A stretch of DNA of 64,000 bases from Alphaproteobacteria bacterium (GTDB taxonomy: Bacteria > Pseudomonadota > Alphaproteobacteria > UBA9219 > RFNS01), in assembly GCA_037200005.1 (NCBI GenBank), contig JBBCGY010000001.1, positions 42,416 to 106,415 of the forward strand. Direction: 5' to 3'. This document shows positions 8,504 to 51,015 of this stretch, one piece after another. The notes below the pieces were generated by a model. It had not been told where the DNA came from. It saw only the letters and a list, made by a program, of their open reading frames with translations, and made no database searches. Numbering within the stretch: the first letter of the stretch is position 1; each line of letters starts with the position of its first letter. The position numbers and the translations under genes are program-made.

Positions 8504-11500
8504 ATGGTCGCTGACATTCAATACACCCAGCCGGAACCGAATTATGACGGATTCCGCGAAGCGCATGTTGAAGAAGCAACTTTCGATTGGCTCTCTGGGC
8601 TTGGCTGGACACTCGCGCATGGGCCGGATTTGGCACCGGAAGGCAAAGCCCCGGAGCGGGCCAGTTATGGCGACGTGCTGTTGTTGGGGCGGTTGAGGAC
8701 AGCCTTGGCCGCGATCAACCCGCAACTCCCCGCCGATGCGATTGACGACGTGGTGCGTAAGATTATCGCAGTCGAAATGCCGTCTTTGGTCGAAGAAAAC
8801 CGGCGCTTGCATAAACTGATGGTCGATGGCGTGGCTGTGCAATACATGCAGGCCGACGGCACGATCAAAAACGACATCGCGTGGCTGATCGACTGGGAAA
8901 ACAAAAAGAACGATTGGCTGGCCGTCAATCAATTCACGGTCATCGAAGAACGCAACAATCGCCGCCCCGACGTGGTGATGTTTATCAACGGTTTGCCCCT
9001 TGCCGTTATTGAATTGAAGAACGCGGGAGACGAAAACGCGACAATCGAAGGCGCGTTCCGCCAGACGCAAGCTTACAAGCAATTGATCCCTTCTCTGTTT
9101 CGCACGAACGGCATACTGATTATTTCCGACGGACTGAAAGCCCGCATCGGCAGCCTGACCGCAGATTATGAGCGTTTCATGCCATGGCGCACGGTGGATG
9201 GGGCCGGTGTCGCGGCCAAAGGAACGCCCGAATTACACACAATGATTCACGGCGTTTTTGAGCAAGGGCGTTTTCTGGAGTTATTGCGCCGGTTCACCGT
9301 GTTTCAAAGCAACGGCAAAGATATTTTCAAAATCGTAGCAGGATATCACCAGTTCCACGCCGTAAAGCTCGCCGTTGCCAGCACCATCGACGCAACGGCC
9401 AGTGAAGGAAATCGCAAAGTCGGCGTCATCTGGCATACGCAAGGATCGGGCAAAAGCCTGTTGATGGCATTTTATGCGGGCAGCGTGATTGCCAATCCTG
9501 CGATGGCCAATCCGACTCTGGTTGTGCTGACCGACCGGAATGATCTGGACGACCAGCTTTTTTAACACTTTCAGCCTATCTCGTGATCTTATCCGCCAGA
9601 CGCCCGCGCAAGCGGGAGATCGCGATGAATTGCGGAAGCTTCTGGCGGTATCATCTGGCGGCGTTATCTTTACGACCATTCAAAAATTTCTGCCCGCTGA
9701 TAGTGAAAAAACTTTCCCGCTGTTGACTGACCGCAAGAATGTCATCGTCATCGCCGATGAAGCGCACCGCAGCCAATATGGCTTCAAGGCCAAGTTGGAT
9801 AAAAAGTCGGGCGAATTAGCTTATGGTTTTGCGAAACACCTGCGCGATGCGCTGCCGAATGCGTCCTTCATTGGCTTTACAGGAACGCCTATTGAGAAAG
9901 CAGATGTCAATACGCCCGCCGTATTCGGCGATTATATTGATGTCTATGATATTCAACGCGCGGTCGAAGACGGCGCGACGGTGCCAATCTATTACGAAAG
10001 CCGCCTAGCCAAACTCCAGCTTGACGAAGAGGAAGTCAAAAATCTTGATGCTGAGGTCGAAGAACTGACCGAAGACGAAGAATCCAGCGAGCGCGAGCGT
10101 AAGAAAAGCAAATGGTCGCGCGTTGAAGCCCTGTGGGAGCCGAAACACGCTTGGCTCAAGTAGCCGCCGATATTGTTCAGCATTTTGAGAACCGTATCAG
10201 CGCCTTAGACGGCAAAGGCATGACCGTATGCATGAGTCGCCGTATTTGCGTGGCGCTCTATAACGAGATTATTAAATTACGGCCCGCATGGCATTCAGAC
10301 GATGACGCGCAAGGCGCTATCAAGATTGTGATGACGGGCAATATCGCCAACGATCCGCCTGAATGGTTGAAACATACGGGCAGCAAGGCGCGCCGTGATT
10401 TCCTGGCAAAGCGGGCGCGCGACGCTAAAGACCCGCTAAAACTTGTTATCGTTCGTGATATGTGGCTTACGGGCTTTGATGCGCCCTGCATGCACACGAT
10501 GTATGTCGATAAGCCGATGCATGGTCATGGCTTGATGCAGGCCATTGCCCGTGTAAATCGCGTATTCCGCGACAAGCCAGGCGGCTTGATCGTTGATTAT
10601 ATCGGGATTGCCCATAATCTGAAACAAGCTCTCTCTATTTATTCCCCCGGCGACCGCGAAGAAGTCGGCATTGACGAGCAGCAAGCCGTCGCAGAGATGA
10701 TGCGCCGCTATGAAATCGTCCGGGATATGTTTTATGGATTCGATTATATGCGCGCGCTGCACGGCACACCGGCTGAACGCTTAGTGCTGATGGCCGAGGC
10801 TCTGGAGTGGATTCTCGATTTGCAGCAACGTGAAGCTGCAAAAGAACAGACCGAACAAGCCAGGAAAGAGGTGCGCCGCAAATTCTCAGACGCCGTTGTT
10901 GGCTTATCGCGCGCCTATGCGCTGGCCGCAACCTCGCCAGAAGCGGGGAAAATTCGTGATGAAGTCGGTTTCTTCCAGGCTATTCGTGCAGCCCTGGCAA
11001 AAAATGAGCCGGGCAAAGGTAGCACACAGGCGGAAATCGATGTGGCCGTCCAACAAATGGTCAGTCGTGCCGTGGTGTCAACGGAGATTGTCGATATTCT
11101 GGCGGCGGCAGGCATTAGAACCCCGGATATATCCATCCTCTCAGATGAATTTCTGGCAGAAATTCAAGGCATGAAGAAGCGTAACCTTGCATTGGAAGCC
11201 TTACAGAAACTCATCAATGGAGAAATAAAATCCCGCATCAAATCGAACGTGGTGCAATCTAAGAAATTCAGCGAACGACTGGAAGCCGCCGTCCGGCGCT
11301 ATCATAACAACGCTATAACTGCCGCGCAGCTTTTGGAGGAGCTGATTGCCATCGCAAAGGATATTAAAGCTGACCGCGAACGAGGAGAAGAACAAGGACT
11401 TAGCGAAGAGGAAATCGCTTTTTATGATGCTCTGGCTGAAAATGAAAGCGCATTGCAGTTGTTGGGCGATGAGAAATTACGAGTGATTGCTACTGAACTG

Positions 11501-11680
11501 GTTGTCTCCGTTCGCAATAATGTGTCTGTTGACTGGATGCACCGCGATAGCGCCCGCGCCAAGTTGCGCATCGAAGTCAAAAAGATTCTCAAGAAATATG
11601 GCTATCCGCCAGATTTACAGGATGCAGCGGTGCAACTGGTGTTGCAGCAGGCCGAAGTTTTGGCCCCACTCTGGGCATAA
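8504..11680 (+). pseudogene. hsdR: type I restriction endonuclease subunit HsdR, two frameshifts
   Basis: Three consecutive ORFs (8504..9565, 9540..10163, 10133..11680) each carry bona fide HsdR sequence (DEAH box DEAHRSQYG, helicase C, C-terminal domain). An extra T in the T6 run at 9558-9563 gives DQLF*. A missing G near 10131-10136 makes expected ...[13 protein letters not shown] read EALWEPKH. Confidence 0.85.
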
Positions 11681-11772
11681 CAATCGCTGACGGCGATCTT
11701 TGGAATTCTATGTAAGAGGCTGCAACAGGTAAGGCCAGATTATGACCGAGAGGAACGAAGATTCTTAAACAA

Positions 11773-12903
11773 TCAAAGCGCCAGCCGGGGCCGGATTAGC
11801 GACAAAGGCCGGGCAGTGGAAAGCTGGAGGCCAACAGCTTCGTTTGGAACATTGGAAAAATCGGTAATAAGCGGCAGCATGGCGTTAGGGCCAAGGGCGC
11901 GTGGTGAGGCACCTAGTTCTTTAAGAGCGGAAACAATTTCCGGTTCATTTAGCGCATGAATGCGCATAAGGGGTTGCGTAGTGTCAGGAATCCATTTCCT
12001 GCGCGAGACTTCATCGCGGCCCGTCGAGATAAGTGCCGCGACCACGTCCTTGAGTTTGTCGCCTTTCGGCAGATTGCCGTTGCTGGTGATTTGAGCGCGG
12101 ACAATCGGCTCGCCCAGGAAGGTCGAAATGGCTTCCGTAAAACTGGCGGCGATTTTCTGATTGCCGTCCTCACTTTGCCAATTCGCCAGGAACACATTTG
12201 GCAAGCTGGAGTCTTTGCCGGGTTTCGCGGCGAAGTCCGCGAGCTGGATTGCAACTCGTGAGCGGCCCGTTTCAATGGGCGCATCGCCGATAAATTCCAG
12301 AACGGCGCTATCGTCCGGCGCTCCCATCGTCGCACCGAGTTTCTTGAAGATGCCGGTCATGGCCGCATTGCCGCCCGCATATTCGCCGACGCGGCCGCGC
12401 GAGACGAGGCCATAGGGCGAATAGCCTTGTTCGCGGCTGACGGATCGCCGGATTTTCTCGTAGATAAAATGCGAGCCAAGTCCAATGCCATTCGGGTATT
12501 CCGCGCTTTTTGTGCGATTACGGAATTCCTGGGATAGTTCCGGCGACACATAGGTATCTTCGCCATAGATAGCAGGATAATGGCGGAAATCCCGGCCATT
12601 GCGTTCCGTGAGAACGGTCGGAAACTCGATTGAGCCACCGGCGAGTTTGGGGCTGCAATTTTCCCACTCCACGATGGCGAAATAAGCCTGAATTTTATTT
12701 TTCTTGATGGCCTCGATAACTTTGCCGAATTTGGCGTTATCAGCGGACGCTCCATGCGTCACGGCTTCACTTTCGACGATTCTATAAAGAATCTCATCAA
12801 GCGCCATATGATGAACGACGTCCGTACCGTTCATGCGCACGATGCTGGCTTTGGCGTTTCCCGGCAGCAGACCGGGCATATTATCGAGCGCAACGGAAGA
12901 CAT
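11773..12903 (-). CDS. protein of unrecognised family (376 aa), paralog of 24000..25298
   Basis: Intact ORF with SD AAGGGGA. Its start lies 2 nt after the XRE gene stop. Long blocks are shared with the 432-aa paralog (HYPAIYGEDT, YPNG[IL]GLG, IAASFT..IST..G.PIVR.Q.TSNGNLP, MRIHAL..PEIV.ALK.LGA.PR.LGP). Confidence 0.7.
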   Translation of the reverse strand: MSSVALDNMPGLLPGNAKASIVRMNGTDVVHHMALDEILYRIVESEAVTHGASADNAKFGKVIEAIKKNKIQAYFAIVEWENCSPKLAGGSIEFPTVLTERNGRDFRHYPAIYGEDTYVSPELSQEFRNRTKSAEYPNGIGLGSHFIYEKIRRSVSREQGYSPYGLVSRGRVGEYAGGNAAMTGIFKKLGATMGAPDDSAVLEFIGDAPIETGRSRVAIQLADFAAKPGKDSSLPNVFLANWQSEDGNQKIAASFTEAISTFLGEPIVRAQITSNGNLPKGDKLKDVVAALISTGRDEVSRRKWIPDTTQPLMRIHALNEPEIVSALKELGASPRALGPNAMLPLITDFSNVPNEAVGLQLSTARPLSLIRPRLAL

Positions 12904-12905
12904 GA

Positions 12906-13556
12906 TTATATTTTCCCCTTGTCGTCGGGGATCGAAGCATTTTCCCAGAATGATTCAAATTGCTCGACATATCTTTCGGCCAAGGGCTTGGAGTGTATCG
13001 AAACGACTTCGACATTATGATCGCTGCGATGCACCGCCTGGGCGATATAGTCATTATAGACGTAATAGGGAATGAGGATTTTCGTCGTCTTATCCAGCCA
13101 GCGATATTCGCAATAGCTGGCGGAGAAATTATAGTCGCCATCCAGGATAAGAACGCGGGCGTCAAGATTCGGAAGCTTGCTCATTCTTTCCATATGCTCG
13201 GTCGCATAATCTTGCGCATAGGAAAGGGTCTTGCCGTCGCTGGAATTAAACTGGCGAATGCGTCCACCGTCTTTCAGCGTTTCGTATATATGATCGAGGA
13301 ATTGTCGGTATCCGGCTTTGCCCGAAAAAACCCTGACTTGGTTTCTCCGCATCCGAACGCCCTCGTCATCCAGGAATTCGACGCCGTGCCGGTCGAAAGC
13401 ATTGGTTATGCTGGCGATGGTCTTCTCATGCGGTTGTACCGTATCGGCCTCGATTTTGCTCACGGTCACGCGGGTAAGCCCGGCCTCCCTAGCCAAGTCT
13501 TCCGCTTTCCATTCCAGTAAGCTGCGCGCTGCGCGAATTTGACGCCCGGTAATCAT
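12906..13556 (-). CDS. XRE-family HTH regulator with uncharacterised C-terminal domain (216 aa)
   Basis: N-terminal HTH: GRQIRAARSLLEWKAEDLAREAGLTRVTVSKIE. It is the first gene of a two-gene minus-strand unit. Confidence 0.75.
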   Translation of the reverse strand: MITGRQIRAARSLLEWKAEDLAREAGLTRVTVSKIEADTVQPHEKTIASITNAFDRHGVEFLDDEGVRMRRNQVRVFSGKAGYRQFLDHIYETLKDGGRIRQFNSSDGKTLSYAQDYATEHMERMSKLPNLDARVLILDGDYNFSASYCEYRWLDKTTKILIPYYVYNDYIAQAVHRSDHNVEVVSIHSKPLAERYVEQFESFWENASIPDDKGKI

Positions 13557-13817
13557 AAAGTTAGCACTAGCATATGGTTTAGTTAAAAATAGATAACAAT
13601 CGAGATAACTAAAATTGGCAATAACATATTAATATTTGTAAAAACATGCCCTGTCAATTCAGAAACATTAGTTTCATGTAAAATTTACTGATACCATAAG
13701 TATATTCTTCTTGATTCCCAGTCGGCTTTGCATTTATGTTCCCAAATATTGGTAATGCCTAATGGTTGAAATTAGCTCGATTAAGCCATTTAAAGCGATT
13801 TTCAAGGGGAATTTCAG

Positions 13818-13991
13818 ATGACCAATTCATTTAACGCTTATGTCATGCGCCAGGGCGAACCGGCCATTACCGCCATCATCGAAAATTGGGAAAGGCTTGT
13901 CGGCTTGCGGGCCGAGGCCGAAACGCCGCTTGAGCAGCGCTGGGCGGCGATGATGCATGGTTATGAGCCACAGGCAATGGCAGTCGCATGA
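13818..13991 (+). CDS. small hypothetical protein (57 aa), first gene of a coupled four-gene operon
   Basis: ATG at 13818 follows AAGGGGA. Its stop overlaps the next start (ATGA). It falls below the ORF-track length cutoff. Confidence 0.45.
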   Translation: MTNSFNAYVMRQGEPAITAIIENWERLVGLRAEAETPLEQRWAAMMHGYEPQAMAVA

Positions 13992-14278
13992 GCCGGAAAG
14001 CCGAAAAACCTTTCAGCCCGGTTGACGAGATGCAGCTTTCTCAGCCGATGGGCAATCGAACCGCCGAACATTTCCGCGATGCCCTGGATGATTTGGAGCA
14101 TGAGGCGACCGCGCAGGACGCAAAAATAAAGCAATTGCGCCAAGCTATTCTGCAACGCGCACAAGAACTCGACACTACCGTTTGCCAATCCTGGCTGGAT
14201 TCAGAAATCGAAAAAGCGGACCACCTCGCGTTGGAAGCGCGGCTGGAAAAACTCATCAAGTTCCTATCGGAAAAATGA
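13988..14278 (+). CDS. small hypothetical helical protein (96 aa)
   Basis: ATGA overlaps at both ends. The composition looks coiled-coil-like. Confidence 0.55.
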   Translation: MSRKAEKPFSPVDEMQLSQPMGNRTAEHFRDALDDLEHEATAQDAKIKQLRQAILQRAQELDTTVCQSWLDSEIEKADHLALEARLEKLIKFLSEK

Positions 14279-14493
14279 TGATGGCGAATTTTCATGAACG
14301 CCCCATGACATATAAAAAGCTCGTCGCTCGTTACGGCCATGACATGGCTTTCGATTTACTCGTCACTATCGAGAGCCTTGCGAAGATTAAGCACGACATC
14401 ATCGAGATCAACGAAGAAATTCGTCTGCAACGCGCGCTGGAAGTTTTGGACGAGGCGGAATTCGGACAGGCAGATAAAGGCGGGGTCAAATGA
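14275..14493 (+). CDS. small hypothetical protein (72 aa)
   Basis: The start ATG at 14275 overlaps the previous stop, and its stop overlaps the next start (ATGA). Confidence 0.5.
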   Translation: MMMANFHERPMTYKKLVARYGHDMAFDLLVTIESLAKIKHDIIEINEEIRLQRALEVLDEAEFGQADKGGVK

Positions 14494-14738
14494 TTTCCGG
14501 TAATAACATACCCAATAAAAAGCTTGCGCCGCGTGAAATCGAAGTCATGACCTTAACGGCGCGTGGCAAGACGACCACCGAAATTGCAATGCTTCTCTCG
14601 ATTGCCGAGGATACAGTTAAGACTCACATCAAACGATCCTGCCAGAAATTGAACGCGGCCAATAAAACACACGCCGTTGCTCTCGTTATGGCTCGCGGCA
14701 TAATAGAATGTTCCTGTTGTCACCCGAAAGGGGGATAG
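14490..14738 (+). CDS. LuxR/GerE-type HTH protein, DNA-binding domain only (82 aa)
   Basis: REIEVMTLTARGKTTTEIAMLLSIAEDTVKTHIKRSCQKL matches the GerE HTH pattern. Confidence 0.8.
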   Translation: MISGNNIPNKKLAPREIEVMTLTARGKTTTEIAMLLSIAEDTVKTHIKRSCQKLNAANKTHAVALVMARGIIECSCCHPKGG

Positions 14739-14820
14739 AACTGCATTTTTATTTGCGCTACATAGTTGCGGCGCATTGGCGATGAAGTTAGAGTAAATTT
14801 TCGCGAAGGGGAGAACGGCG

Positions 14821-17800
14821 ATGGTGGCACCTGCGAAGAAATTTCACGAAGCGAACGGCGAACTCACCAATGAGGCAGGGGCAACGCGACCGCCGCTCTC
14901 GAGGAACAGCCTCTGGCGGACACTGCGCCCCGGGATCTCGGTGGGAGTAAGCCTCGCGGCAGTCGTCGCTTGCGAAAGCGGCGAACCCAACGCTTCAAAT
15001 GACAACATCGTTTCGATTTCCCAAGCGATAGGCTCTGCGACAATCTATAGCTTGCCTACCAATGTTTTGATGCCCAATGCCATCAATAATCAAAATCTCA
15101 TTGTGGGCCAGGGTCTGCCTTCGATCTATGATGCCAACACGGGAACATTTAGTAGCCTTGAAGTAAACCAGCCTTCGGGGGCGGTCACTTCCTATGCAAT
15201 TAGCAATGCCGGTCACGTTGTCGGCAATTCATTCAATGTTGGGCCGGTTTCCAATTCGGCGTTCATTTCACAGGGCGGACATTTGTCCGATCTATACGCC
15301 GGCAACAACAACGGGGTGACCAGCGTCGCTTACGGCGTCAACAATTATGGCCAAGTCGTCGGCACGATGCCGGTGACGGTCAACGATGCGAACAATAGTC
15401 CACATCCTTTCACGCATGCGTTCTCGTGGCAGGGCAGCGTTACAGACCTTACACCGAACTACTATGGAAATTCAGCCGCCTATGGCATCAACGATGCTGG
15501 GCAGATCGTGGGAACGATAGGAACTGCGGGGGTCAAGTGGCAGGGCGGATCGTCAAGCACGCTGCCGAGCGGCACCAGCACGCCCGCCATGATCAACAAT
15601 GTCGGTCAGATCGTCGGGACATATAGTTCAGGCGGTTCGTCGCACGCTTTCCTTGTGCAGAGCGGCACCCTGACCGATCTCGGAGCCATACAGGGAAGCA
15701 CACCTGTGAGGATCAACAACAAAGGACAAGTTACGGGCGGCTTCTACAACACGGGTGCCGGACAATATTACCCGAGCGTCTGGCAGAATGGCGTCGTGGT
15801 TACGATTCCCACTCTGTCGGGCATTCCCGCAGGCTGGTCTATCACGTCGATAAACGGCATCAATGACAGCGGAACCGTCGTAGGGCAAGGCACGCTTTCG
15901 GGTTCTTCACGGGGTTTTTACCTAACTTCGCCGCAGCTTCTGAACTACGCCATTGCCGGAAAGCCCTACGATCCGAAAGCGAATGGTGGTGAGGATTCGG
16001 CGTCAACCCCGACAGACGATCTATGTGGAACTCATGGCATGTGTGTGCCCAACGCGCAATTGCTGTCGGCCAGCTTGAATTTGAACGATACGCCGATTGG
16101 GTATCAGCCGCCCAAAGGGCCACCAGCCTATATCCGGCTTACATATAATCATCGTGACAGTGTCGCGCCCAGCAGCACTTCCTCGCATGTTGGGCCAAAC
16201 TGGACTCTGAATGTCATTTCTTACATTCAGGATGATCCGGCCAGCCCGGGCCAGAGCGTCACGCGCAACGTGGCGGGCGGCGGTATCGTCGACTACACTT
16301 TTGAGGCAGGGCAGTTCAATACCACCACGGGTGCATTCGGGCCGGAGAAGCAAACCGGGGCGATCTTGAAACGGACTCCCGCGACAGGGTTCAGCGCCAG
16401 TGCTTCCTATGAGCTTTCCTTTCCCGATGGGGCCAAGCAAATATTCTCCTACCCGGATGGAAGCTTCAATTATCCGCGCCGCGCATTCCTGACGGATATC
16501 GTTGATGCCTCAGGCCAGGGCCTGCATTTTGGCTACAATTATCTTCAAGGAACTTTCGGCGCGATCAATTGCACGCCGGGATGTCCGCAACTGCAATCAG
16601 TTTCTGATGCTAATTTCCGTGCAACAAACTTCGTCTACGGTGACGCATCTAATGTCTTGCGCGTGACGCGGATTAATGACCCGTTCGGGCGTCACGCCGA
16701 TTTAGCTTATGATGGCAGCGGACGGCTTTCGTCAATCACGGATGTGATCGGCATTCAATCGTCTTTCACCTATGACACCACCGACCCTACTTTCATCAAA
16801 AAGCTAACGACACCCTATGGCGATAGCAATTTCGTCTTTGGGCAAGATACGGCGACGGATCGTCGTTGGCTCACACTCTCCGATGCCGTGGGCAATACGG
16901 AAAAAGTGGAATACCGGGGCAGCAGCGCCAGCGGCATAGCGGCGTGCGACAAAAACACGAGCGATGCGTCGTGCAGTGTCTCGACCTCCGTGCCGACAGG
17001 CATGCCTAACGGCATCAATAACGCCGATCTCGACAAGCGCAACACCTTTGTCTGGAACAAATGGATGTATGCGAATGGCTATGGCAGCGATTACACGCAG
17101 GCGAATGTTACCCATTGGCTCAAGGACGGTGCGGGCAATCCCGTGGGGATTCCGGAAAGCGTCAAGCCGCTGTACGAATCCCGCATTTGGTATAATTATC
17201 CCGGCCAGAACGATCCTAGCACCCCAGGAACCCTGTCTGTGCCGAGGGCGACGGGCCGCGTGATCACCGATCCGCTTTACGGGCAAGCGCCGCAGAATCA
17301 GGTTTACCAAAGTCAATATAACAGCCTCGGCAAGCCCACCTTGACCGTCGATCCCTACAAGGTTTCAGGCAACAACAATGAAGGCCGAACTACACGCATG
17401 ACCTATGATGCCTCCGGCGTCGATCTTTTGACGGTGGAACAGAAAACCGGCAGCGGAACGCCGGGGACATGGGCGACGATTGCTTCCTACGTCTATACCG
17501 ATCCGACAGAACAGCCCACATCGATCCACAAACCGATCCGCTATACCGACGCGGCGGGGCAAACTTATAAATTCAAATACAATGGCGACGGCCAATTGAT
17601 CTATGCCGCCAATCCCTACAACGATACGACGTATAATGAATATCATCCGTCCGGCAAGCTCCTGCGGACGACCATGCCTGTGCCGAGCGTAAACTGGAAT
17701 ACCATCGATTATGGAACCGATATTAACGGCGCGCCGACGGGGGCGAGCAACAGCAGCGCCCTAAGGGACACCGCCATTACCTACGACTCCGCCGATCGTC

Positions 17801-20202
17801 CGTATGACGTGACCGACCGGATGGGTCTGGTGAAGCGTTTCGGCTACGACAATCTCGACCGGGTAACGCGGGTGGATTACGCCCCCGGCACGGCGGGCAC
17901 GACCTATGAGACGAACACCTATACCAACCTCGACCTGACATCGCACCGCGACCGGCTTGGCCGGGTTAGCACCGATGTTTACACGGCGAACCGGCAGCTG
18001 TGGCTGAGCTTCAATGCTTCGGGAACGCGGCGGGGCTTCACCTATTACCCGAACGGCGCGCTACAAGGCTACTACGACGAGAACGACCATCCTACAATCT
18101 ACGGCATCGACGGCCAGGGACGCGCCAACGCCGTCGTCTATCCCAATGGCAACCAGACGAATTACTACTACGATGATGGCGGGCGGATGCGCACCATTGT
18201 CGATCTCGACGGCTCGAACCAGCGCTGGCGGAACATTAAATATAACGTCGATAATAGCGTCCATATCCGCGACTATACCAACCCGGCAAATCCGTCCGAT
18301 CCCGTGGTTCTGGCGACGACAACCGCGACCTTCACCTACGATCCATGGTTCCCCGGACAAATGACTTCAATGGCCGATGCCAGCGGAACGACCAACTATA
18401 CATACAAAACCGTAGGCACCGTCGGCGCCTTACAACTCGCGACCGAAAATCCGCCGACGGTAAGCGGCGACGCGGATAAAATCACCTACACCTATGACCA
18501 GAAGGGACGGCTCGCCTCGCGCCAGATCGGTATCGGCACGGCGAGCGTGCTGCCGCAGGAAAGCTGGGTGCGCGACACCTATGGCCGCATTAACAGGCAC
18601 ATCATTCCCGACGGCAACCTGTTCTATTACGACTTCAACGGCGCGAGCAATCAGGTGACAATGCGCGCGTTTCGCAATCAGGCGCTGACGGAGATCGACC
18701 CGCTGAATACGCGCACGATGATGAGCTACGACACGGCGGCGAACGACTCGCGGCTGCTGACGATCAACAACCCGCCCTACGACAACAGCGCGCCCGGCGC
18801 GCGGGACTTCACCCTCAATTGGGGATCGTCGCCCGCCAATCCGTACGTTCCGGCGACGATCACCGACTCCGCTGGAGGCCCCGGCGGGGCGTGGGGACAG
18901 CGGGTGTGGACGATGGGCTATGACGCGCGCGACCGGCTGACCTCGGCGGTCGCCGCCGACCGCAGCTATTCGTTTACCCTGGACGCGCCGGGCAACGCGA
19001 CGAGCTTCACCAGCACGCACTATCCGAGCGGCGGGCTGTATAGCTTTAACTCGACCTACAACACGTCGAACCAGATGACGGTGGCGAACGGCAACGCGCT
19101 GATCTACGACCCCTACGGCAACCTCGTCACCCACACGAACTACCGCAGCTTCAAGTACGACGCCGAGAACCGCCTGATCGAGGTCGACTTCCCCGCCGCG
19201 CCCGCCGACAAGGTTGAGATGCAATATGACGGTCTTGGTCGCCGCACGCAGATCAAATCCACCATCGGCGGCGTCGTCACGACGCGGAACCTGCAATGGT
19301 GCGCCCAGACGACCTCGCCGCCGTTCCAGGGCGCGGCGGAAGAGATATGCGTCGAGCGCGACGCATCGGGCGGCATGCAGCGCATGGTCTATCCCGAGGG
19401 CGAATATCGCGCCAACGGCGGCCGGTACTTTTATGAACGCGACCAGACCGGCAACATCCGCGACGTGATGAAGATGGCGGCGGGATTGACGACCGCCGCG
19501 CGCGATAGCTCCTTCAACTACACGCCTTATGGCGGCGTCGACGGCAAAGACGGCACTGCCGAGCCGCTGCAGCAGTTCGCGGGACTGCTGTATGAGAAGA
19601 ACAGCAACCTGTTCCTCTCCCGCACCCGCGCCTATGCCCCATGGATCGGCAGATGGCTCCAGCGCGATCCGATTGGGCAGAATGGGGGGAGTAATGTTTA
19701 TGAGTATGCGGGGGCGAGTCCGATTAACAAGATTGATCCGAGCGGGTTGCAGGGGGTGCGACCTGGGTTAATAGAAACGATGCGACCTACAATAGGAGTG
19801 CCACCAGCAGCGGGGATCAACGAGGGGGCAGGAAATTACGCCGATTATCTTCAAGAAAATGGAGAAATGATGGGTGATCTAGCCACCCTTTATAGGGCCA
19901 CTAGCGCGGCGGTTGCCGGTGCGAGCAACCAATCAATGCGAGAGGATATTGAAAAAGCAAAAGTATGCACATCGTTTGGAAACAGCATGTCGGCGGATCA
20001 GCCGTTATGGTGCGGGCCTGGCGGATGCGCGGATAGCGTCAGGCAGCAGTGGCTGGATGCGACCGGCGGCTTAGTGTATCCACAAATCATCGAGTCTTTC
20101 AAAAAGAGGTTTGAACCGGCTCCCTCGCGGCTTGTGTCGACGCCGATGCGTGGCAATGACTTCGGTAATTCGGTTTTATTCCCTAATGTGGGCCCAGGTT
20201 AG
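14821..20202 (+). CDS. Rhs/YD-repeat polymorphic toxin with N-terminal HAF-type repeats and unrecognised C-terminal tip (1793 aa)
   Basis: Lipobox-like signal (SLAAVVAC). HAF-type repeats (HAFSW..., YGINDAGQIVGT, HAFLVQSGTLTDLG). Many YD repeats (YDGSGRL, YDASGVDL, YDNLDRV, YDQKGRL, YDAENRL, YDGLGRR). The core ends RWLQRDPIGQNGGSNVYEYAGASPINKIDPSGL and is followed by a 150-aa tip. Confidence 0.9.
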   Translation: MVAPAKKFHEANGELTNEAGATRPPLSRNSLWRTLRPGISVGVSLAAVVACESGEPNASNDNIVSISQAIGSATIYSLPTNVLMPNAINNQNLIVGQGLPSIYDANTGTFSSLEVNQPSGAVTSYAISNAGHVVGNSFNVGPVSNSAFISQGGHLSDLYAGNNNGVTSVAYGVNNYGQVVGTMPVTVNDANNSPHPFTHAFSWQGSVTDLTPNYYGNSAAYGINDAGQIVGTIGTAGVKWQGGSSSTLPSGTSTPAMINNVGQIVGTYSSGGSSHAFLVQSGTLTDLGAIQGSTPVRINNKGQVTGGFYNTGAGQYYPSVWQNGVVVTIPTLSGIPAGWSITSINGINDSGTVVGQGTLSGSSRGFYLTSPQLLNYAIAGKPYDPKANGGEDSASTPTDDLCGTHGMCVPNAQLLSASLNLNDTPIGYQPPKGPPAYIRLTYNHRDSVAPSSTSSHVGPNWTLNVISYIQDDPASPGQSVTRNVAGGGIVDYTFEAGQFNTTTGAFGPEKQTGAILKRTPATGFSASASYELSFPDGAKQIFSYPDGSFNYPRRAFLTDIVDASGQGLHFGYNYLQGTFGAINCTPGCPQLQSVSDANFRATNFVYGDASNVLRVTRINDPFGRHADLAYDGSGRLSSITDVIGIQSSFTYDTTDPTFIKKLTTPYGDSNFVFGQDTATDRRWLTLSDAVGNTEKVEYRGSSASGIAACDKNTSDASCSVSTSVPTGMPNGINNADLDKRNTFVWNKWMYANGYGSDYTQANVTHWLKDGAGNPVGIPESVKPLYESRIWYNYPGQNDPSTPGTLSVPRATGRVITDPLYGQAPQNQVYQSQYNSLGKPTLTVDPYKVSGNNNEGRTTRMTYDASGVDLLTVEQKTGSGTPGTWATIASYVYTDPTEQPTSIHKPIRYTDAAGQTYKFKYNGDGQLIYAANPYNDTTYNEYHPSGKLLRTTMPVPSVNWNTIDYGTDINGAPTGASNSSALRDTAITYDSADRPYDVTDRMGLVKRFGYDNLDRVTRVDYAPGTAGTTYETNTYTNLDLTSHRDRLGRVSTDVYTANRQLWLSFNASGTRRGFTYYPNGALQGYYDENDHPTIYGIDGQGRANAVVYPNGNQTNYYYDDGGRMRTIVDLDGSNQRWRNIKYNVDNSVHIRDYTNPANPSDPVVLATTTATFTYDPWFPGQMTSMADASGTTNYTYKTVGTVGALQLATENPPTVSGDADKITYTYDQKGRLASRQIGIGTASVLPQESWVRDTYGRINRHIIPDGNLFYYDFNGASNQVTMRAFRNQALTEIDPLNTRTMMSYDTAANDSRLLTINNPPYDNSAPGARDFTLNWGSSPANPYVPATITDSAGGPGGAWGQRVWTMGYDARDRLTSAVAADRSYSFTLDAPGNATSFTSTHYPSGGLYSFNSTYNTSNQMTVANGNALIYDPYGNLVTHTNYRSFKYDAENRLIEVDFPAAPADKVEMQYDGLGRRTQIKSTIGGVVTTRNLQWCAQTTSPPFQGAAEEICVERDASGGMQRMVYPEGEYRANGGRYFYERDQTGNIRDVMKMAAGLTTAARDSSFNYTPYGGVDGKDGTAEPLQQFAGLLYEKNSNLFLSRTRAYAPWIGRWLQRDPIGQNGGSNVYEYAGASPINKIDPSGLQGVRPGLIETMRPTIGVPPAAGINEGAGNYADYLQENGEMMGDLATLYRATSAAVAGASNQSMREDIEKAKVCTSFGNSMSADQPLWCGPGGCADSVRQQWLDATGGLVYPQIIESFKKRFEPAPSRLVSTPMRGNDFGNSVLFPNVGPG
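18991..19746 (+). repeat. direct repeat copy 1 (Rhs core 3' end)
   Basis: Near-identical to 21502..22257 at a constant offset of 2511 bp. There are 3 aa differences over about 250 codons. Confidence 0.9.
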
Positions 20203-20206: not shown

Positions 20207-21478
20207 ATGAAAAAGTTTACTCTATTGCTTGTCGCGCTTTGTAGTCTGACAATGTTACCGGCTCATGCCGCTGACCAAGACTCCAAACCACCCGTCATTG
20301 ATATTCCTGCCACGCGAAAAGAGGCGGAGTCTGGAGATGCTCGGGCTCAATATAATCTGGGCATAGCTTATCTCAACGGTTACGGGGTGAAGAAAAATAA
20401 AGATGAAGCTATTGAATGGATTTACAAAGCAGGGAAGAACAATGATGCCCTCGCAATATATTTCTTGGGCAGCGCATATCATGATGGCGACCTTTTGCCA
20501 CAAGACTACGCCAAGGCTATGAAGTGGTATCACAGGTCCGATGAATTATACGGCAGTCCCCTTGCGCAGAATATGCTTGGCGTGATGCACGAAAACGGTC
20601 AGGGGGCTCCACAGAATTATGAAGAAGCGGCTAGGTGGTATCGCAAAGCTGCCGAGAATATTTACGCACCGGCTCAATCCCATCTTGGATTCCTATACTA
20701 CGCTGGACGCGGCGTTCCTAAGGACGATCAAAAGGCTCTATATTGGCTTAAGAAAGCAGCCATACAAAACGATGCGCCAGCAAAGCTTATGCTAGGCATT
20801 ATGCACTATAAAGGCGAAGGAGTGGAAAAGAATTACGTTAAAGCTGTCAGCTATTTTCGCGAAGCCGCAGACGTCGGAATATCGATAGCTGAACGATATT
20901 TGGGAAATATGTATTACCACGGCGAAGGCGTTTCCAAGGATGAAGCCCAGGCTGTGTCTTGGTGGCGCAAAGCCGCCGAACAAGGGGATAGGGAGTCGGA
21001 AAAGATCATAGGTGGTATGTACTATTATGGCACAGGAGTGTCGAAGGATTTTTCCCAAGCCGTTTTATGGTGGCAAAAAGCTGCGGAAAAGGGTGATGTC
21101 GATGCTCAATGCAACTTGGCGAAAGCTTACTATCATGGAGAAGGTATAGGAAAAGATGAAACTCAAGCTGTGTTATGGTGGCGGAGGGCCGCGGCACAAG
21201 GACATGGAGAATCCCTCCTTTATTTAGGACAAGCGTATTTTAGTAGCATAGGCGTATCGCAAGATGATGTGCAGGCTTATATATGGCTAAGCTTGGCGGC
21301 TACAAGAAATCAGTCGTCAGCGGTTGCAACACTCACGGAACTCGAAAAGTCCATGACGCCGGAACAAATCGCTGAAGCCAGAAAACGCGTGGCAGAATGG
21401 AAACCCAAGCCTGAGCCAAAGCCTGCCCCAATAGGGCCAATACCCGAAATTCTAAAAGAAGTCCGTGAAGATTTATGA
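20207..21478 (+). CDS. secreted Sel1-like repeat protein (423 aa), candidate cognate immunity/partner of the Rhs tip
   Basis: Signal peptide MKKFTLLLVALCSLTMLPAHA. About 10 Sel1 repeats (AQYNLGIAYLNGYGVKKNKDEAIEWIYKA...). The start lies 5 nt after the Rhs stop. Confidence 0.8.
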   Translation: MKKFTLLLVALCSLTMLPAHAADQDSKPPVIDIPATRKEAESGDARAQYNLGIAYLNGYGVKKNKDEAIEWIYKAGKNNDALAIYFLGSAYHDGDLLPQDYAKAMKWYHRSDELYGSPLAQNMLGVMHENGQGAPQNYEEAARWYRKAAENIYAPAQSHLGFLYYAGRGVPKDDQKALYWLKKAAIQNDAPAKLMLGIMHYKGEGVEKNYVKAVSYFREAADVGISIAERYLGNMYYHGEGVSKDEAQAVSWWRKAAEQGDRESEKIIGGMYYYGTGVSKDFSQAVLWWQKAAEKGDVDAQCNLAKAYYHGEGIGKDETQAVLWWRRAAAQGHGESLLYLGQAYFSSIGVSQDDVQAYIWLSLAATRNQSSAVATLTELEKSMTPEQIAEARKRVAEWKPKPEPKPAPIGPIPEILKEVREDL

Positions 21479-22668
21479 TCTCGACTTCGAGGATGCATTT
21501 GGGCAATGCGACGAGCTTCACCAGCACGCACTATCCGAGCGGCGGGCTGTATAGCTTTAACTCGACCTACAACACGTCGAACCAGATGACGGTGGCGAAC
21601 GGCAACGCGCTGATCTACGACCCCTACGGCAACCTCGTCACCCACACGAACTACCGCAGCTTCAAGTACGACGCCGAGAATCGCCTGATCGAGGTCGACT
21701 TCCCCGCCGCGCCCGCCGACAAGGTTGAGATGCAATATGACGGTCTTGGCCGCCGCACGCAGATCAAATCCACCATCGGGGGCGTCGTCACGACGCGGAA
21801 TCTGCAATGGTGCGCCCAGACGACCTCGCCGCCGTTCCAGGGCGCGGCGGAAGAGATATGCGTCGAGCGCGACGCATCGGGCGGCATGCAGCGCATGGTC
21901 TATCCCGAGGGCGAATATCGCGCCAACGGCGACCGGTACTTTTATGAACGCGACCAGACCGGCAACATCCGCGACGTGATGAAGATGGCGGCGGGATTGA
22001 CGACCGCCGCGCGCGACAGCTCCTTCAACTACACGCCTTATGGCGGCGTCGACGGCAGAGACGGCACCGCCGAGCCGCTGCAGCAGTTCGCGGGACTGCT
22101 GTATGAGAAGAACAGCAACCTGTTCCTCTCCCGCACCCGCGCCTACGCCCCATGGATCGGCAGATGGCTCCAGCGCGATCCGATTGGGCAGAATGGCGGC
22201 GCGAATGTTTATGAATATGCGGGGGCGAGTCCGATTAACAAGATTGATCCGAGCGGGCTTCAAAGCATCCAGAATGCGGATGACTGGATAAAACAGAGAA
22301 ATGCCCCTGCTCAGCCGTCAAATAGTATTTGGAGTGAGATCCTAGATAAAATCAGAGAACCTGTGTCTAGAAATGAAGCCATTAGTGAGATTACAAATTT
22401 CCGTCAATCTGGAGAGGCCCAAACTGAAGCACAGATAGCTAGAATGCTCATGGGTTTACCCGTCGAACCTGATTTTTCTGTTGCTATAGGAGGGGCTGAA
22501 GGTGAGCAAGATCTTGGCAGAGCGATTATGTCGGTAGCGCGCGAGATTTTGCGCCGCCCTGCGGAGCAGTCGTGCCCAATAGTTCAGAGAAAAGTCTTCG
22601 GTCAATCCTTGCCACCAAGTGATTTTGGTGACAAGAATCTCCCACTGCCATCTATATTAACCCTTTAA
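21475..22668 (+). CDS. orphan Rhs C-terminal cassette (Rhs core fragment plus alternative toxin tip, 397 aa)
   Basis: The ATG overlaps the Sel1 stop (ATGA). Residues from GNATSF to DPSGL duplicate the main Rhs. They are followed by a different, AT-rich 135-aa tip. Confidence 0.8.
   Translation: MISTSRMHLGNATSFTSTHYPSGGLYSFNSTYNTSNQMTVANGNALIYDPYGNLVTHTNYRSFKYDAENRLIEVDFPAAPADKVEMQYDGLGRRTQIKSTIGGVVTTRNLQWCAQTTSPPFQGAAEEICVERDASGGMQRMVYPEGEYRANGDRYFYERDQTGNIRDVMKMAAGLTTAARDSSFNYTPYGGVDGRDGTAEPLQQFAGLLYEKNSNLFLSRTRAYAPWIGRWLQRDPIGQNGGANVYEYAGASPINKIDPSGLQSIQNADDWIKQRNAPAQPSNSIWSEILDKIREPVSRNEAISEITNFRQSGEAQTEAQIARMLMGLPVEPDFSVAIGGAEGEQDLGRAIMSVAREILRRPAEQSCPIVQRKVFGQSLPPSDFGDKNLPLPSILTL
21502..22257 (+). 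repeat. direct repeat copy 2 (orphan Rhs core fragment)
   Basis: See copy 1. Homology starts at GGCAA(C/T)GCGACGAGCTTCACC and decays right after the codons for DPSG. Confidence 0.9.
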
Positions 22669-22700
22669 AGAATATGAGTGGAATTGAGGGAGTTAATGCA

Positions 22701-23489
22701 ATGAAGAAGATAATTATTATTACGGCATTTGCTTTGATGGTCGCATCAGTTCAAGCTTATGCTGCCGTCCAGGATGAAAAAGCCGACAGTTTGTTAGGGC
22801 ATCGCCTGTCCGAACAATTACGGAAAACAGAAGCGCAGACAACTCTTGCTGCGGGAAAAGAGCTATTTAAAACAGGCGAAGGTCTTTCTAAGGATAATGT
22901 CGATGCAGTAAAGCTATTTCGCGTAGCTGCCAATCTTGGCTCGATGGAGGCACAAACAATTCTCGGCGCTGCATACCTTAGTGGCGATGGAGTGCAAAAA
23001 GATATTCCTGAAGCTTTAAAATGGATACAAAAATCTGCCGCCCAAGGAGACGCCAAGGCTCAACATTTATTGGGTGTATTGTATCATGAAGGATCAGACG
23101 TAAAAAAAGACAATGTGAAATCGTTAAAATGGATACGGAAAGCAGCGGAGCAAGGTTTGCCATCGGCACAATTTAGTCTTGGCACTATGCTTTCTAAAGG
23201 ATATGGAACACACCGAGATGAAACTTCAGCGATGGAATGGTTTCATAAATCCGCAAACCAAGGCTATGCTAAGGCCCAAATTATGCTCGGAATTGCATAT
23301 CACCTAGGTAAAGATATATCTAAAGACGATATTCTAGCTGATCAATGGCTGATATTGGCCGGGGAAAAAGAGGCACGTGATGATTTGGAAAAATCCATGA
23401 CCCCCGAACAAATCGCCGAAGCTATAAACCGCGCGGCGGAATGGAAGCCGAAACCACCAACCAAGCCCGATCCTGAATCCAAACCGTAG
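22701..23489 (+). CDS. secreted Sel1-like repeat protein (262 aa), candidate partner of the orphan tip
   Basis: SD GAGGGA. Signal peptide MKKIIIITAFALMVASVQAYA. Sel1 repeats are present. The C-terminal LEKSMTPEQIAEA...AEWKPKP tail is shared with 20207..21478. Confidence 0.8.
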   Translation: MKKIIIITAFALMVASVQAYAAVQDEKADSLLGHRLSEQLRKTEAQTTLAAGKELFKTGEGLSKDNVDAVKLFRVAANLGSMEAQTILGAAYLSGDGVQKDIPEALKWIQKSAAQGDAKAQHLLGVLYHEGSDVKKDNVKSLKWIRKAAEQGLPSAQFSLGTMLSKGYGTHRDETSAMEWFHKSANQGYAKAQIMLGIAYHLGKDISKDDILADQWLILAGEKEARDDLEKSMTPEQIAEAINRAAEWKPKPPTKPDPESKP

Positions 23490-23513: not shown

Positions 23514-23882
23514 ATGAAATTTATCCGATTTTATGTCGTTGCATCTCTTGTTCTTGGAGTTTTGCAGATTGCTGACGGCATCGTTCTTGTTTCGTATGGC
23601 ACAATAGCAATTAGTAATATTTTCTCTTTGCTCGAAGCTATATGGGTTGTTGTCTCGATGATAGCGCTTTGGTTTTTCATAAAAAGCAAATTTCCAATAT
23701 TCATTCCGACGACATATATTTTATACAATGTTGCTGGCTGGGGATACGGGGCCTATTTGTTTTCACAATTGCAAAATTCTGACCAAATAATCGACGTTCC
23801 TCTTTGGTTTAAAATTGCGGGTATTTGTTTTGGCATCTATTTTGCCTGCGTAAATTTCATATTGTATAAACGAAAACTGTGA
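23514..23882 (+). CDS. small integral membrane protein (122 aa, about 4 TM)
   Basis: Four hydrophobic segments in a very AT-rich gene. The start lies 24 nt after the preceding stop. Confidence 0.6.
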   Translation: MKFIRFYVVASLVLGVLQIADGIVLVSYGTIAISNIFSLLEAIWVVVSMIALWFFIKSKFPIFIPTTYILYNVAGWGYGAYLFSQLQNSDQIIDVPLWFKIAGICFGIYFACVNFILYKRKL

Positions 23883-23999: not shown

Positions 24000-25298
24000 A
24001 TGAATCAGGCATTTAACTCCGATCCCTATAAGCGCCTGCCCGGCGGCATCCGGGCGGCGGTTTTGCCGATGCAGGGGGCCGACCTTGTGCATCAAGCCAC
24101 GCTCGGCGCGGCGCTTGAGCATATCATCGGTCATGAGGCTGCGGTTCATGAAGCGGCTTTCCAAAGCCAGCATTTTCACAAGATTTTGAAGGCAAGCGAG
24201 AAAGGCGAAATCAACGTCCTTTTTCTTATGGCCGCGATGCATACATGTTTGCCGAAATTGGCGGGCGCGGCGATTGAACTTCCGACCGTCATTACGAAAT
24301 GGCAAGGCAACGAGTTTAAGCACTATCCCGCCATCTATGGCGAAGATACATGCGTTCTGCCGGAATTCTCCAAAACCTTCCGCGAAAAGACGGCGGGCGC
24401 GCTTTATCCTAATGGCCTGGGCCTTGGCACATGGTTCGCCAAAGAACGGATCGAAGGATCGGTATCGGGCCGCTCTGGGTTCGCGCCTCTCGGCATGGTG
24501 TCCCAAGGCCGTGTTTGTGAATATTCCGGGCATAACGGGCCGATGATTGGACTCTTGAACAAATTCGGTGCAACGACTGCGCCGGACGCGAGCGCAGTCC
24601 TCGAACTCGACGGCCTCACTCCCACGATGAAAAGCCGCTGGCAAGTGCCGGTCGATACTGAAGCCTTGGCCGATCAGAACGGCAAGCCCCTCGACAATAT
24701 TTTCGTAACGAGATGGTCAGGCGAAAGCGGCAAGCAACAAATCGCCGCAAGCTTTACGAAAACCATCTCCACCTTTACCGGCGATCCTATTGTGCGCGTT
24801 CAGCTAACGAGCAACGGCAATCTTCCGAATGGCGATATGCTGCAAAATGTACTATCTTCACTGCTGGCTGCCGGTCACGACGAAATCCGCGAGCGGAAAT
24901 GGGCCATAGCAGGCGAATTAAAAAGTGTTGCTAGCAACCGAAGCCCGATCATCCCGCTCCTTGCTTCCCGGCAGCAGCAAATGGCTGCGCTTCTGTCCGC
25001 AGGGCGAGATGAAATTCTATCCCGGCGTATCGGCATGGATGATTTAAGCCATATTTTCGGCGGCGCGGTTCCGACAATGCGGATTCATGCGCTCAGGAAG
25101 CCGGAAATAGTCGCGGCCTTGAAAGACTTAGGTGCACAACCCCGTATTCTCGGCCCCCACGTCATGCTGCCCGCGATTATGGACTTCGCCAATATGCCGC
25201 AGGAGGCGCTTAATTTCGATCTGCCCCCGGCGAGGCCGCTGAATACGGTCAATCATAGAGGCGCAACCAGCACGCCGCTTTTCTCTCTGGCGGCATAA
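24000..25298 (+). CDS. protein of unrecognised family (432 aa), paralog of 11773..12903
   Basis: Collinear similarity to the 376-aa protein over its whole length. It has an extra ~50-aa segment that duplicates the LL[AS]AG[HR]DEI..R motif. Confidence 0.7.
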   Translation: MNQAFNSDPYKRLPGGIRAAVLPMQGADLVHQATLGAALEHIIGHEAAVHEAAFQSQHFHKILKASEKGEINVLFLMAAMHTCLPKLAGAAIELPTVITKWQGNEFKHYPAIYGEDTCVLPEFSKTFREKTAGALYPNGLGLGTWFAKERIEGSVSGRSGFAPLGMVSQGRVCEYSGHNGPMIGLLNKFGATTAPDASAVLELDGLTPTMKSRWQVPVDTEALADQNGKPLDNIFVTRWSGESGKQQIAASFTKTISTFTGDPIVRVQLTSNGNLPNGDMLQNVLSSLLAAGHDEIRERKWAIAGELKSVASNRSPIIPLLASRQQQMAALLSAGRDEILSRRIGMDDLSHIFGGAVPTMRIHALRKPEIVAALKDLGAQPRILGPHVMLPAIMDFANMPQEALNFDLPPARPLNTVNHRGATSTPLFSLAA

Positions 25299-25584: not shown

Positions 25585-25776
25585 ATGAGCCAGGAAGCAT
25601 ATCGCGTGAAAGAATTCTGCAACCGCTACGCCATTTCAAAAGCCAGCTTCTACCGGGAAACAGCGGCGAAGCGGCTGCATATCCTAAAACGTGGCCGTAC
25701 AACGCTCGTTGCCCGCACCGAAGCCGAACGCTGGTTTGAAAGCCTTGGCCAAGGCCAGCCGCAGCAATCAGCCTGA
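25585..25776 (+). CDS. excisionase/AlpA-like small HTH DNA-binding protein (63 aa)
   Basis: SD AGGGAGGA. The pattern YRVKEFCNRYAISKASFYR...RWF resembles MerR-superfamily excisionases. It lies immediately upstream of the integrase. Confidence 0.65.
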   Translation: MSQEAYRVKEFCNRYAISKASFYRETAAKRLHILKRGRTTLVARTEAERWFESLGQGQPQQSA

Positions 25777-25843
25777 TCGCATTCAATATCCCGAATATTT
25801 CCAAAGCCATTTTTCGTCAATCTTATTCTCATGGAGGCATGTC

Positions 25844-51009: not shown

Positions 51010-51015
51010 AATATC

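Follow-up and report, generated by a model that had tools for sequence, protein, structure and literature searches.

Bacterial teneurin-like proteins (TLPs) join an FN-plug, an NHL propeller and a YD-repeat shell to a C-terminal tip of ~15 kDa, and are followed by a downstream immunity gene (Raoelijaona et al. 2026, PMC13018210; PDB 9pt5/9ifo). Those of Gram-negative bacteria are predicted to be Sec/signal peptidase II (SPII) lipoproteins with no dedicated delivery machine encoded nearby, one TLP tip is toxic only when it is sent to the periplasm, and the export and target entry of Sec-exported YD toxins in two-membrane bacteria are explicitly left as open questions (PMC13018210). Polymorphic toxins that combine a signal peptide, Rhs repeats, a beta-propeller and an adjacent immunity gene were described earlier (Zhang et al. 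2012, PMC3482391, Table 1). Here we analyse a gene of this general kind, rhs, in a 64,000-nucleotide stretch (the window) of a contig, at least 1.83 Mb long, from an Alphaproteobacteria bacterium (assembly GCA_037200005.1, contig JBBCGY010000001.1, positions 42,416 to 106,415). As signal-peptide Rhs proteins are already described (PMC3482391; TLPs, PMC13018210), the architecture is not unique, and it is shared across a clade; what is new is a HAF-repeat head on an Rhs shell, with evidence of head exchange, and two orphan tips, each paired with a putatively periplasmic Sel1 protein. We consider it probable that rhs encodes a polymorphic toxin that is exported by the Sec route independently of a type VI secretion system (T6SS), is possibly lipid-anchored, and carries an envelope-acting tip that is blocked by periplasmic Sel1 proteins.

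The rhs gene (14821..20202, forward strand) is one uninterrupted open reading frame (ORF) of 1793 amino acids (aa). An in-frame TAA (14794-14796, 25 nt 5' of the ATG) and a Shine-Dalgarno sequence (AAGGGGAG, 7 nt 5' of the ATG) fix its N-terminus. The GenBank model (MEJ0061671.1) begins 154 codons late, at codon 155 (a Leu codon read as Met), and thus loses window positions 14821-15282, and with them the signal peptide and the initial HAF repeats; in the searched protein collection the sole entry with all 1793 aa is an unnamed gene call (P0163). Comparison with aligned relatives shows the long form to be the true one, and late starts of this sort may make genome surveys undercount the class of signal-peptide HAF-Rhs proteins. 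A promoter and terminator scan of 13.4-25.5 kb gave the same counts as shuffled sequence.

The linker, N-terminal plug and YD-repeat shell (15928..19518, +) are recognised by RHS_repeat (PF05593 in Pfam, E=3e-24), YD_repeat (TIGR01643 in NCBIfam, E=1.3e-22) and profile matches to the Protein Data Bank (PDB). The linker holds the conserved Cys402 and Cys408, the plug contains the motifs SLNLNDTPIGY... and VGPNWTLN..SYIQDDP, and from about residue 375-400 on the protein is conserved with its metagenomic relatives P0122-P0124 and with loci L007-L013, which are described below. The Rhs-associated core follows (19519..19749, +; residues 1567-1643; TIGR03696, E=2.5e-18) and ends in the junction ...DPIGQNGGSNVYEYAGASPINKIDPSGL with the cleavage motif DPSGL. 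Three residues of a putative aspartyl autoprotease, R1603, D1616 and D1639, do not vary in the alignment with relatives (A1) and stand at a spacing that matches R2103/D2116/D2140 of BiTLP (PMC13018210). Repeats, a core with one Arg and two Asp, and similarity that ends at the core together mark the product, on sequence grounds, as an Rhs/YD polymorphic toxin.

Among solved YD proteins, the profile of the shell matches Rhs shells best (7q97, 1e-49), then a TLP (2.5e-20) and Tc toxins (1e-15 to 1e-10). The closest solved shells by sequence are those of T6SS Rhs effectors (7q97, 8h8a, Tse5 8cp6, Tre23 7pq5, Tse15 8uy4), with which the rhs locus shares the shell, the DPxGL core, a polymorphic tip, downstream immunity candidates and orphan cassettes; it differs from them in that its N-terminus is not of the PAAR, prePAAR, DUF6531 or VgrG-linking kind but has a Sec-type signal and a HAF propeller, and in that vgrG, hcp and Eag genes are missing nearby. 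TLPs resemble it in their signal, beta-propeller, YD shell, tip of ~15 kDa, R/D/D motif and downstream immunity gene, and in the absence of a delivery machine next to the gene, but the FN-plug-NHL-YD order is not found here: no NHL or teneurin Pfam match was obtained, the HAF propeller lies N-terminal to the plug, the shell is nearer to the T6SS type than to the TLP type, and the immunity candidates are Sel1-repeat proteins. The TcB-TcC components of Tc toxins (PDB 4o9x, 4igl) are likewise YD cocoons with an autoproteolytically released toxin, but they need a TcA translocator and have insect targets, whereas no TcA-like gene is present here and the immunity-type cassettes point to bacteria. 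WapA, of Gram-positive bacteria, is Sec-dependent, whereas the present host has two membranes and an extra outer-membrane step would be needed. The toxins of the 2012 survey, WapA included, are similar in that the signal peptide is the sole trafficking signature, accompanied by RHS and propeller repeats and a variable C-terminal toxin; the HAF head, Sel1-type immunity and the family of the present tip are unlisted there (PMC3482391).

Export is suggested by an N-terminal signal (14821..14973, +; residues 1-50), recognised by sequence reading, hydrophobicity and the lipobox pattern, that ends in a lipobox-like VVA/C (a slash marks the cleavage site), the codon of Cys51 being 14971-14973. A polar n-region (residues 1-36, with Arg28, Arg33 and Arg36) is followed by the hydrophobic residues 38-50, GISVGVSLAAVVA, with an 11-residue Kyte-Doolittle mean of up to 2.48, and directly by Cys51. 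VVAC agrees with the lipobox [LVI][ASTVI][GAS]C at the signal end, and VGVSLAAVVAC (residues 41-51) fits a PROSITE PS51257-like pattern. Because the sites for signal peptidase I (AVVA/C) and SPII (VVA/C) are the same bond, export is likely whichever enzyme acts; lipidation at Cys51, which is read from the pattern match, is uncertain. At the matching place, directly before the first HAF repeat, the relatives have canonical signal peptides (P0122 ...SSGHA/EQ; a 76-aa ORF before P0123 ...PNVQA/AA; P0124 ...CWA/AE). The mature protein contains close Cys pairs (402/408, 584/588, 709/718, 1494/1510 and 1731/1736), which, on general knowledge, fit an exported, disulfide-bonded protein. Since the signal, the extracellular-type head described next and the cysteine pairing point the same way, Sec export of the product is likely. 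A twin-arginine translocation (Tat) signal was considered and rejected, as SRNSLWR has no twin arginine.

Between signal and linker lies the HAF-repeat domain (15040..15927, +; about residues 74-369), identified by TIGR02913 (E=4e-15; 55.4 bits versus a curated cutoff of 22.65), an AlphaFold2 (AF2) model and Foldseek. The consensus HAF repeat of ~42 residues occurs seven times in alignment A2. An AF2 model of residues 52-400, built with a 76-sequence alignment of HAF proteins, has a mean predicted local distance difference test (pLDDT) score of 84.9, a predicted template modelling (pTM) score of 0.84, and 28 beta-strands with helices only at the end; among the 50 Foldseek matches listed against PDB, only beta-propellers occur (E 3e-7 to 5e-4), among them the PknD sensor domain, designed 'Pizza' NHL-type derivatives, strictosidine synthase, TolB and acylaminoacyl peptidase. 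The head is thus predicted to be a beta-propeller, of about seven blades given the 28 strands and the ~42-residue repeat. HAF repeats are essentially missing from the literature searched. The head has more than 1000 HAF/DUF3466 homologues, stand-alone proteins of ~350 aa that are 30-40% identical and many of which are PEP-CTERM proteins. The N-terminal 300 residues of the rhs product are predicted to share the repeat propeller of these extracellular proteins (TIGR02913), which end in PEP-CTERM or other surface domains; the rhs product, by contrast, has its propeller joined to an Rhs shell and lacks a PEP-CTERM signal.

No Pfam match to PAAR or DUF6531 was obtained in the full protein (E<=0.01) or in residues 1-450 (E<=10), the latter threshold also revealing no cryptic PAAR-like N-terminal domain, and a Pfam scan of ~60 ORFs from across the 64-kb window found no PAAR, VgrG, Hcp, Eag-type (DUF1795) or other T6SS gene. 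These results agree with the original prediction, which was made from the DNA letters and described an Rhs toxin with a lipobox-like signal and HAF-family extracellular repeats at its N-terminus, no PAAR/VgrG-type delivery domain, a full YD shell that ends at the canonical junction, and no T6SS gene in the window: each of these parts was recovered by the searches, the lipobox as a pattern match beside a hydrophobic stretch and the repeats far above the family cutoff.

The candidate toxin is the C-terminal tip of the protein (tip 1; 19750..20202, +, stop codon included; residues 1644-1793), 150 aa with pI 4.9, no His, and Cys at 1716, 1731 and 1736. It had been predicted to match no known toxin domain, and indeed no Pfam (E<=10), NCBIfam (E<=1) or PDB-sequence (E<=10) match was found. 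An exhaustive phmmer search against 1.84e9 representative proteins returned only its own product, a scan of 241 million metagenome records gave no relative, and a word-indexed protein search found nothing, which is a weak negative as it missed the tip's own product too. By these searches tip 1 is an orphan in the strict sense. One mucin-like protein (P0162, E=5e-4) was discarded as a spurious low-complexity match. A thioredoxin-like reading of WCGPGGC was rejected, since its cysteines are spaced CxxxxC, not CxxC, and lack a preceding beta-strand context, and so was a Cys-His peptidase of the NlpC/P60 or Tae-like kind, since the tip lacks histidine.

Two further features of the tip had been put forward, and each holds in part. 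The three cysteines are present, but as a hint of action outside the cytoplasm they are weak evidence, because in the solved Bacillus TLP the tip Cys only forms a disulfide with the plug inside the shell (PMC13018210); the periplasmic Sel1 partners argue better for that compartment. By analogy, and as a speculation, Cys402/408 and the unpaired Cys1716 could likewise link the tip to the plug linker, much as C2216 and C719 are linked in BiTLP. The drop in G+C after DPSGL is real, but it is stepwise rather than abrupt: G+C at third codon positions (GC3) is 0.72 in the whole shell, 0.83 in its last ~260 codons (the part with an orphan copy), 0.53 in tip 1 and 0.44 in the gene behind it, and the second tip and its partner are at 0.40 and 0.36.

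That downstream gene, Sel1a (20207..21478, +; 423 aa), starts 5 nt past the rhs stop and encodes nine Sel1 repeats (PF08238, E=1e-85, 279.6 bits) behind a signal peptide that we read as MKKFTLLLVALCSLTMLPAHA/AD, in line with the signal-peptide-bearing partner that had been expected there. The Sel1a stop codon and the ATG of a 397-aa orphan rhs ORF overlap. The orphan ORF begins with a copy of the last ~260 codons of shell and core (21475..22263, +; TIGR03696, E=2.9e-20): positions 21501-22257 match 18990-19746 over 758 bp at 98.0% identity (blastn), the match ending at the DPSGL codons (22257/19746), and this is the sole large repeat within the window. The orphan continues into tip 2 (22264..22668, +; 134 aa), to which tip 1 is unrelated (blastp finds no similarity) and which has no Pfam, NCBIfam or PDB-sequence match and no relative in the metagenome contigs scanned, and is followed by a second Sel1 gene, Sel1b (22674..23489, +; PF08238 in four stretches, E=1.7e-40, 136.4 bits). 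The likely start of Sel1b is 22701 (MKKIIIITAFALMVASVQA), behind a Shine-Dalgarno GAGGGAG, and yields a signal peptide; GenBank has a 262-aa form. Sel1a and Sel1b are 30-42% identical and have a common C-terminal tail and 3' end. The orphan rhs, second tip and second Sel1 gene (21475-23489) had gone unmentioned in the original prediction.

A gene in the immunity position thus stands behind each tip, Sel1a after tip 1 and Sel1b after tip 2, and both proteins are candidate periplasmic immunity proteins. As judged from the sequence, the layout is that of a textbook main rhs gene with an orphan cassette and imported tip/immunity modules, and the 758-bp repeat is a substrate for cassette exchange. 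Phospholipase D, a toxin unrelated to tips 1 and 2, is neutralised by Sel1-repeat immunity proteins, as is the T6SS effector VgrG4, and no example from an Rhs system was found in the literature searched. For VgrG4 of K. pneumoniae the immunity protein is Sel1E, and PA5087 (PDB 5jkp) is cited as its homologue (PMC7108748). These too are Sel1 solenoids whose genes come right after that of a toxin, in some cases as an array, and that give specific protection; they differ from the present pair in that the toxin neutralised (the DUF2345 region of VgrG4) is unrelated to tips 1 and 2, and immunity by Sel1a and Sel1b is putative.

A full-length search returned, besides the product itself, three metagenomic relatives (P0122, P0123 and P0124) with 34-36% identity over 81-90% of the length. 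They have the same order in alignment A1 (signal, HAF repeats, Cys-containing linker, plug with SLNLNDTPVGY... and VGPKWTLN..SYIQDDP, shell and core), and their tips, which are unrelated and without a Pfam match, diverge right past DPxG[L/T]. P0123 is truncated by a frameshift (L001 9774-10004 / 10001-14692), the signal and first HAF repeat being on the leading 76-aa ORF. The three loci are mobile-element-like, with integrase, resolvase, AbiE, Imm26 and DUF4259 cassettes. In L003 the gene behind Rhs encodes a membrane-anchored Sel1-like protein, and an Imm26 gene lies ~1.1 kb downstream, after a 325-aa gene.

A scan of genome contigs that used one shell sequence as query gave no match, whereas a profile of alignment A1, run against species-representative genomes, found plug and shell in seven loci (L007-L013), in metagenome-assembled genomes (MAGs) of Accumulibacter, Reyranella, Rhodospirillales, Burkholderiales, Bryobacteraceae, Terriglobales and Polyangiaceae. 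One of them (L008) is the HAF-type locus of P0124. Five (L007, L009, L010, L011 and L013) form a sister clade, from Beta- and Alphaproteobacteria and Acidobacteriota, in which the head is not HAF: a signal peptide precedes TPR and a Peptidase_C39-like, papain-fold domain (Pfam E 6e-3 to 6e-9; L007 8960-10100, L009 3067-4500, L010 8924-10200, L011 4034-5200, L013 8834-10200). The remaining locus, L012, shows the start of a TPR-C39 head only. Small signal-bearing ORFs 5' of the HAF-type genes (L001 9051-9725, L003 1856-2389 and L004 1758-2360) resemble the first ~80 residues of the TPR heads (E 1e-4 to 1e-10), which suggests that the HAF module displaced an older TPR head and left a stump; no such upstream remnant is present in our window. 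A further protein, P0152, combines HAF, DUF6531 and Rhs with an unrelated shell, and the HAF-Rhs fusion therefore arose more than once. On this comparative evidence the N-terminal head of signal-peptide Rhs proteins appears to be a swappable module, like the tip. A gene for a PEP-CTERM surface protein lies directly 5' of Rhs in L007 (about 8280-8930) and L009 (2011-3066); together with the many HAF proteins of the PEP-CTERM kind, such neighbours may point to a tie between these Rhs proteins and surface biology of the exosortase type.

We propose the following course of events for the rhs product. The precursor would cross the inner membrane by its N-terminal signal, giving a mature protein that starts at Cys51 and may be lipid-anchored. 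The HAF propeller would form an outward head for surface attachment or target binding, filling the place of the PAAR/VgrG-binding domains of T6SS Rhs proteins or of the TPR and C39-like module of the sister clade. The YD shell would enclose the 150-aa tip, which R1603/D1616/D1639 of the core would free past DPSGL (L1643), and the protein would be displayed on, or released from, the outside of the producer cell. The tip would then act in the envelope or periplasm of a neighbouring bacterium, and Sel1a would bind it directly, neutralising it in the producer and its kin. The orphan shell end, tip 2 and Sel1b would be a previous or alternative cassette, exchangeable by homologous recombination between the two copies of the 758-bp repeat. 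What speaks most strongly for an envelope target is the pairing of each of two unrelated tips with a Sel1 protein that bears a signal, neither tip being followed by a candidate for cytoplasmic immunity.

Several other explanations need to be weighed. An unlikely one is that the protein is a surface adhesin or recognition protein, or a teneurin- or Tc-like toxin against eukaryotic hosts or grazers, and that the Sel1 proteins are co-secreted partners. Metazoan adhesion receptors also combine a beta-propeller with a YD shell, and for their bacterial counterparts a social role has been discussed (PMC13018210); host-associated bacteria often have Sel1-repeat proteins (PMC3482391); and the tip has no enzymatic signature. 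Such a role would leave unexplained why the autoprotease residues and the DPSGL motif are intact and why, in a main-plus-orphan layout, a different Sel1 gene lies 5 nt past the stop of each different tip, which is the signature of toxin and immunity; the relatives, moreover, have small downstream immunity-like genes, including Imm26 in L003.

Slightly less probable still is a decayed, non-functional tip, the locus being a relic on a degenerating island and the lack of homologues a sign of junk. The empty search of 1.84e9 representatives, the low-complexity-like composition of the tip, its low AF2 score (below) and the nearby hsdR gene, whose three ORFs show that some genes of the region are broken or mis-assembled, all speak for decay. 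Yet the frame stays open for 150 codons past DPSGL, and only 5 nt separate its stop from a Sel1 gene that is intact and has a signal; the 1793-codon ORF and both Sel1 genes are intact, and a 758-bp repeat that is 98% identical suggests recent cassette exchange; Rhs tips, moreover, commonly have few or no known relatives, as the tips of P0122-P0124 again illustrate.

We give a low probability to a tip whose substrates, such as nucleic acids, lie in the cytoplasm of the target cell, with Sel1 protecting during export only or being unrelated to the toxin. Most characterised Rhs tips are cytoplasm-acting enzymes, and clade relatives have cytoplasmic-type immunity candidates; at the present locus both Sel1 proteins bear signals, neither tip is followed by a cytoplasmic immunity candidate, and tip 1 has no nuclease, deaminase or ADP-ribosyltransferase (ART) motif and no His. 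Very improbable, finally, is a T6SS cargo that uses an N-terminal adaptor we did not recognise, or a chaperone from another part of the genome, and whose hydrophobic N-terminal stretch is a prePAAR-like or transmembrane helix: the shell is closest by sequence to solved T6SS Rhs proteins (7q97, with Tse5, Tre23 and Tse15) and our view covers 64 kb of a much longer contig, but no PAAR, DUF6531, VgrG, Hcp or Eag-type match occurs in protein or window, residues 74-369 are modelled as a propeller of a family that is otherwise extracellular or PEP-CTERM, the relatives bear textbook cleavable signal peptides, and T6SS substrates, whose loading takes place in the cytoplasm, are known to be without Sec signals.

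The Sec-exported, envelope-acting toxin that we favour has evidence of its own to contend with, and the following points all weigh against it. The Cys of a PROSITE lipoprotein signal lies within about residues 15-35 of the precursor, and Cys51 is outside that usual range, after an unusually long n-region of 36 aa; nor is the lipobox conserved, as P0122, the ORF upstream of P0123 and P0124 have AxA-type sites. In the window, no route for export through the outer membrane is apparent, and the search for T6SS genes covered the window only. Tip 1 is rich in Gly, Pro, Ala and Ser, without His or a recognisable catalytic motif, its single-sequence AF2 model (pLDDT 35) is uninformative on its fold, and as it has no homologues conservation gives no evidence of function. 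Last, L004 has a DUF7945 protein and L001 a 90-aa protein as immunity candidates of cytoplasmic type, which means that the targets of this Rhs clade are not confined to the envelope.

Should tip 1 be toxic in the periplasm only and be blocked by Sel1a, the two would be a new envelope-targeting toxin/immunity pair, and the Sel1-repeat immunity class would extend beyond T6SS effectors. A broader view, which we hold as tentative, is that HAF-propeller Rhs proteins are a distinct, T6SS-independent and contact-dependent delivery platform of diderm bacteria, in which a surface-displayed (lipo)protein docks onto neighbouring cells by an exchangeable head (HAF propeller or TPR + C39), and that tip 1 founds a new family, periplasm-acting and non-enzymatic or of novel fold, neutralised by Sel1 solenoids. 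The locus and its clade offer a compact comparative handle on delivery, with one shell and interchangeable heads, tips and immunity cassettes, the immunity candidates being periplasmic at the rhs locus and cytoplasmic in relatives.

The rhs locus appears to lie in a mobile, defence-rich, island-like region whose far end is beyond the window. A tyrosine integrase gene (25691-27031, +) is on the 5' side of tRNA-Lys(UUU) (27112-27187), and no tRNA-Lys-derived direct repeat (>=13-mers) that would mark the far end occurs elsewhere in the window. Closer to rhs, Sel1b is followed by a gene for a small multi-pass membrane protein (23514..23882, +; 122 aa, GC 0.36), recognised by hydrophobic segments in its translation and without a family match, which is possibly a leftover orphan immunity gene of a lost cassette. 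Two paralogues of 376 aa (11773-12903, -) and 432 aa (24000-25298, +), 44% identical over ~400 residues and without a Pfam or NCBIfam match, flank the block of helix-turn-helix (HTH)/LuxR, rhs and Sel1 genes in inverted orientation and might be the borders of a mobile module.

Upstream of rhs are an HTH regulator gene and a type I restriction-modification system that has taken up Fic and unknown genes. The hsdM-hsdS-hsdR operon contains a Fic/SoFic gene (7159-8319) and a gene for a 517-aa protein of no known function (5597-7150); hsdR itself (8504-11680, +) is split into three overlapping ORFs (HSDR_N with the start of SWI2_SNF2; the rest of SWI2_SNF2; domain 3 with the C-terminal domain), which indicates two frameshifts, from a pseudogene or from errors in the MAG assembly. 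Besides that HTH regulator, a stand-alone LuxR/GerE HTH protein of 82 aa (14182-14738, +; E=1e-17) is encoded directly before rhs, 83 nt 5' of the rhs start, and the start of its gene overlaps a 103-aa ORF; it is possibly a local regulator or part of a split larger one.

Beyond the integrase, 27-46 kb is mostly housekeeping and envelope genes (two-component regulators, rsmB, a poly(A) polymerase-family nucleotidyltransferase, pepN, glycosyltransferases and a Na+/H+ antiporter), and an R64/IncI-like and Dot-like transfer region occupies 46-64 kb. At 46025-60270 (-) it has an R64/IncI-like thin-pilus cluster (PilS pilin, T2SSF platform, T2SSE ATPase, PilO, a secretin and TcpQ/PilL-like) and, after it, T4SS_TraI and DotD homologues. 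The secretin and ATPase genes at 46-57 kb were considered as a type II secretion system functionally linked to rhs and rejected, as they belong to this thin-pilus and IncI/Dot-like conjugation cluster. The cluster, with TraI and DotD, is a module of the type IVB conjugation-like kind and probably belongs to an integrative conjugative element.

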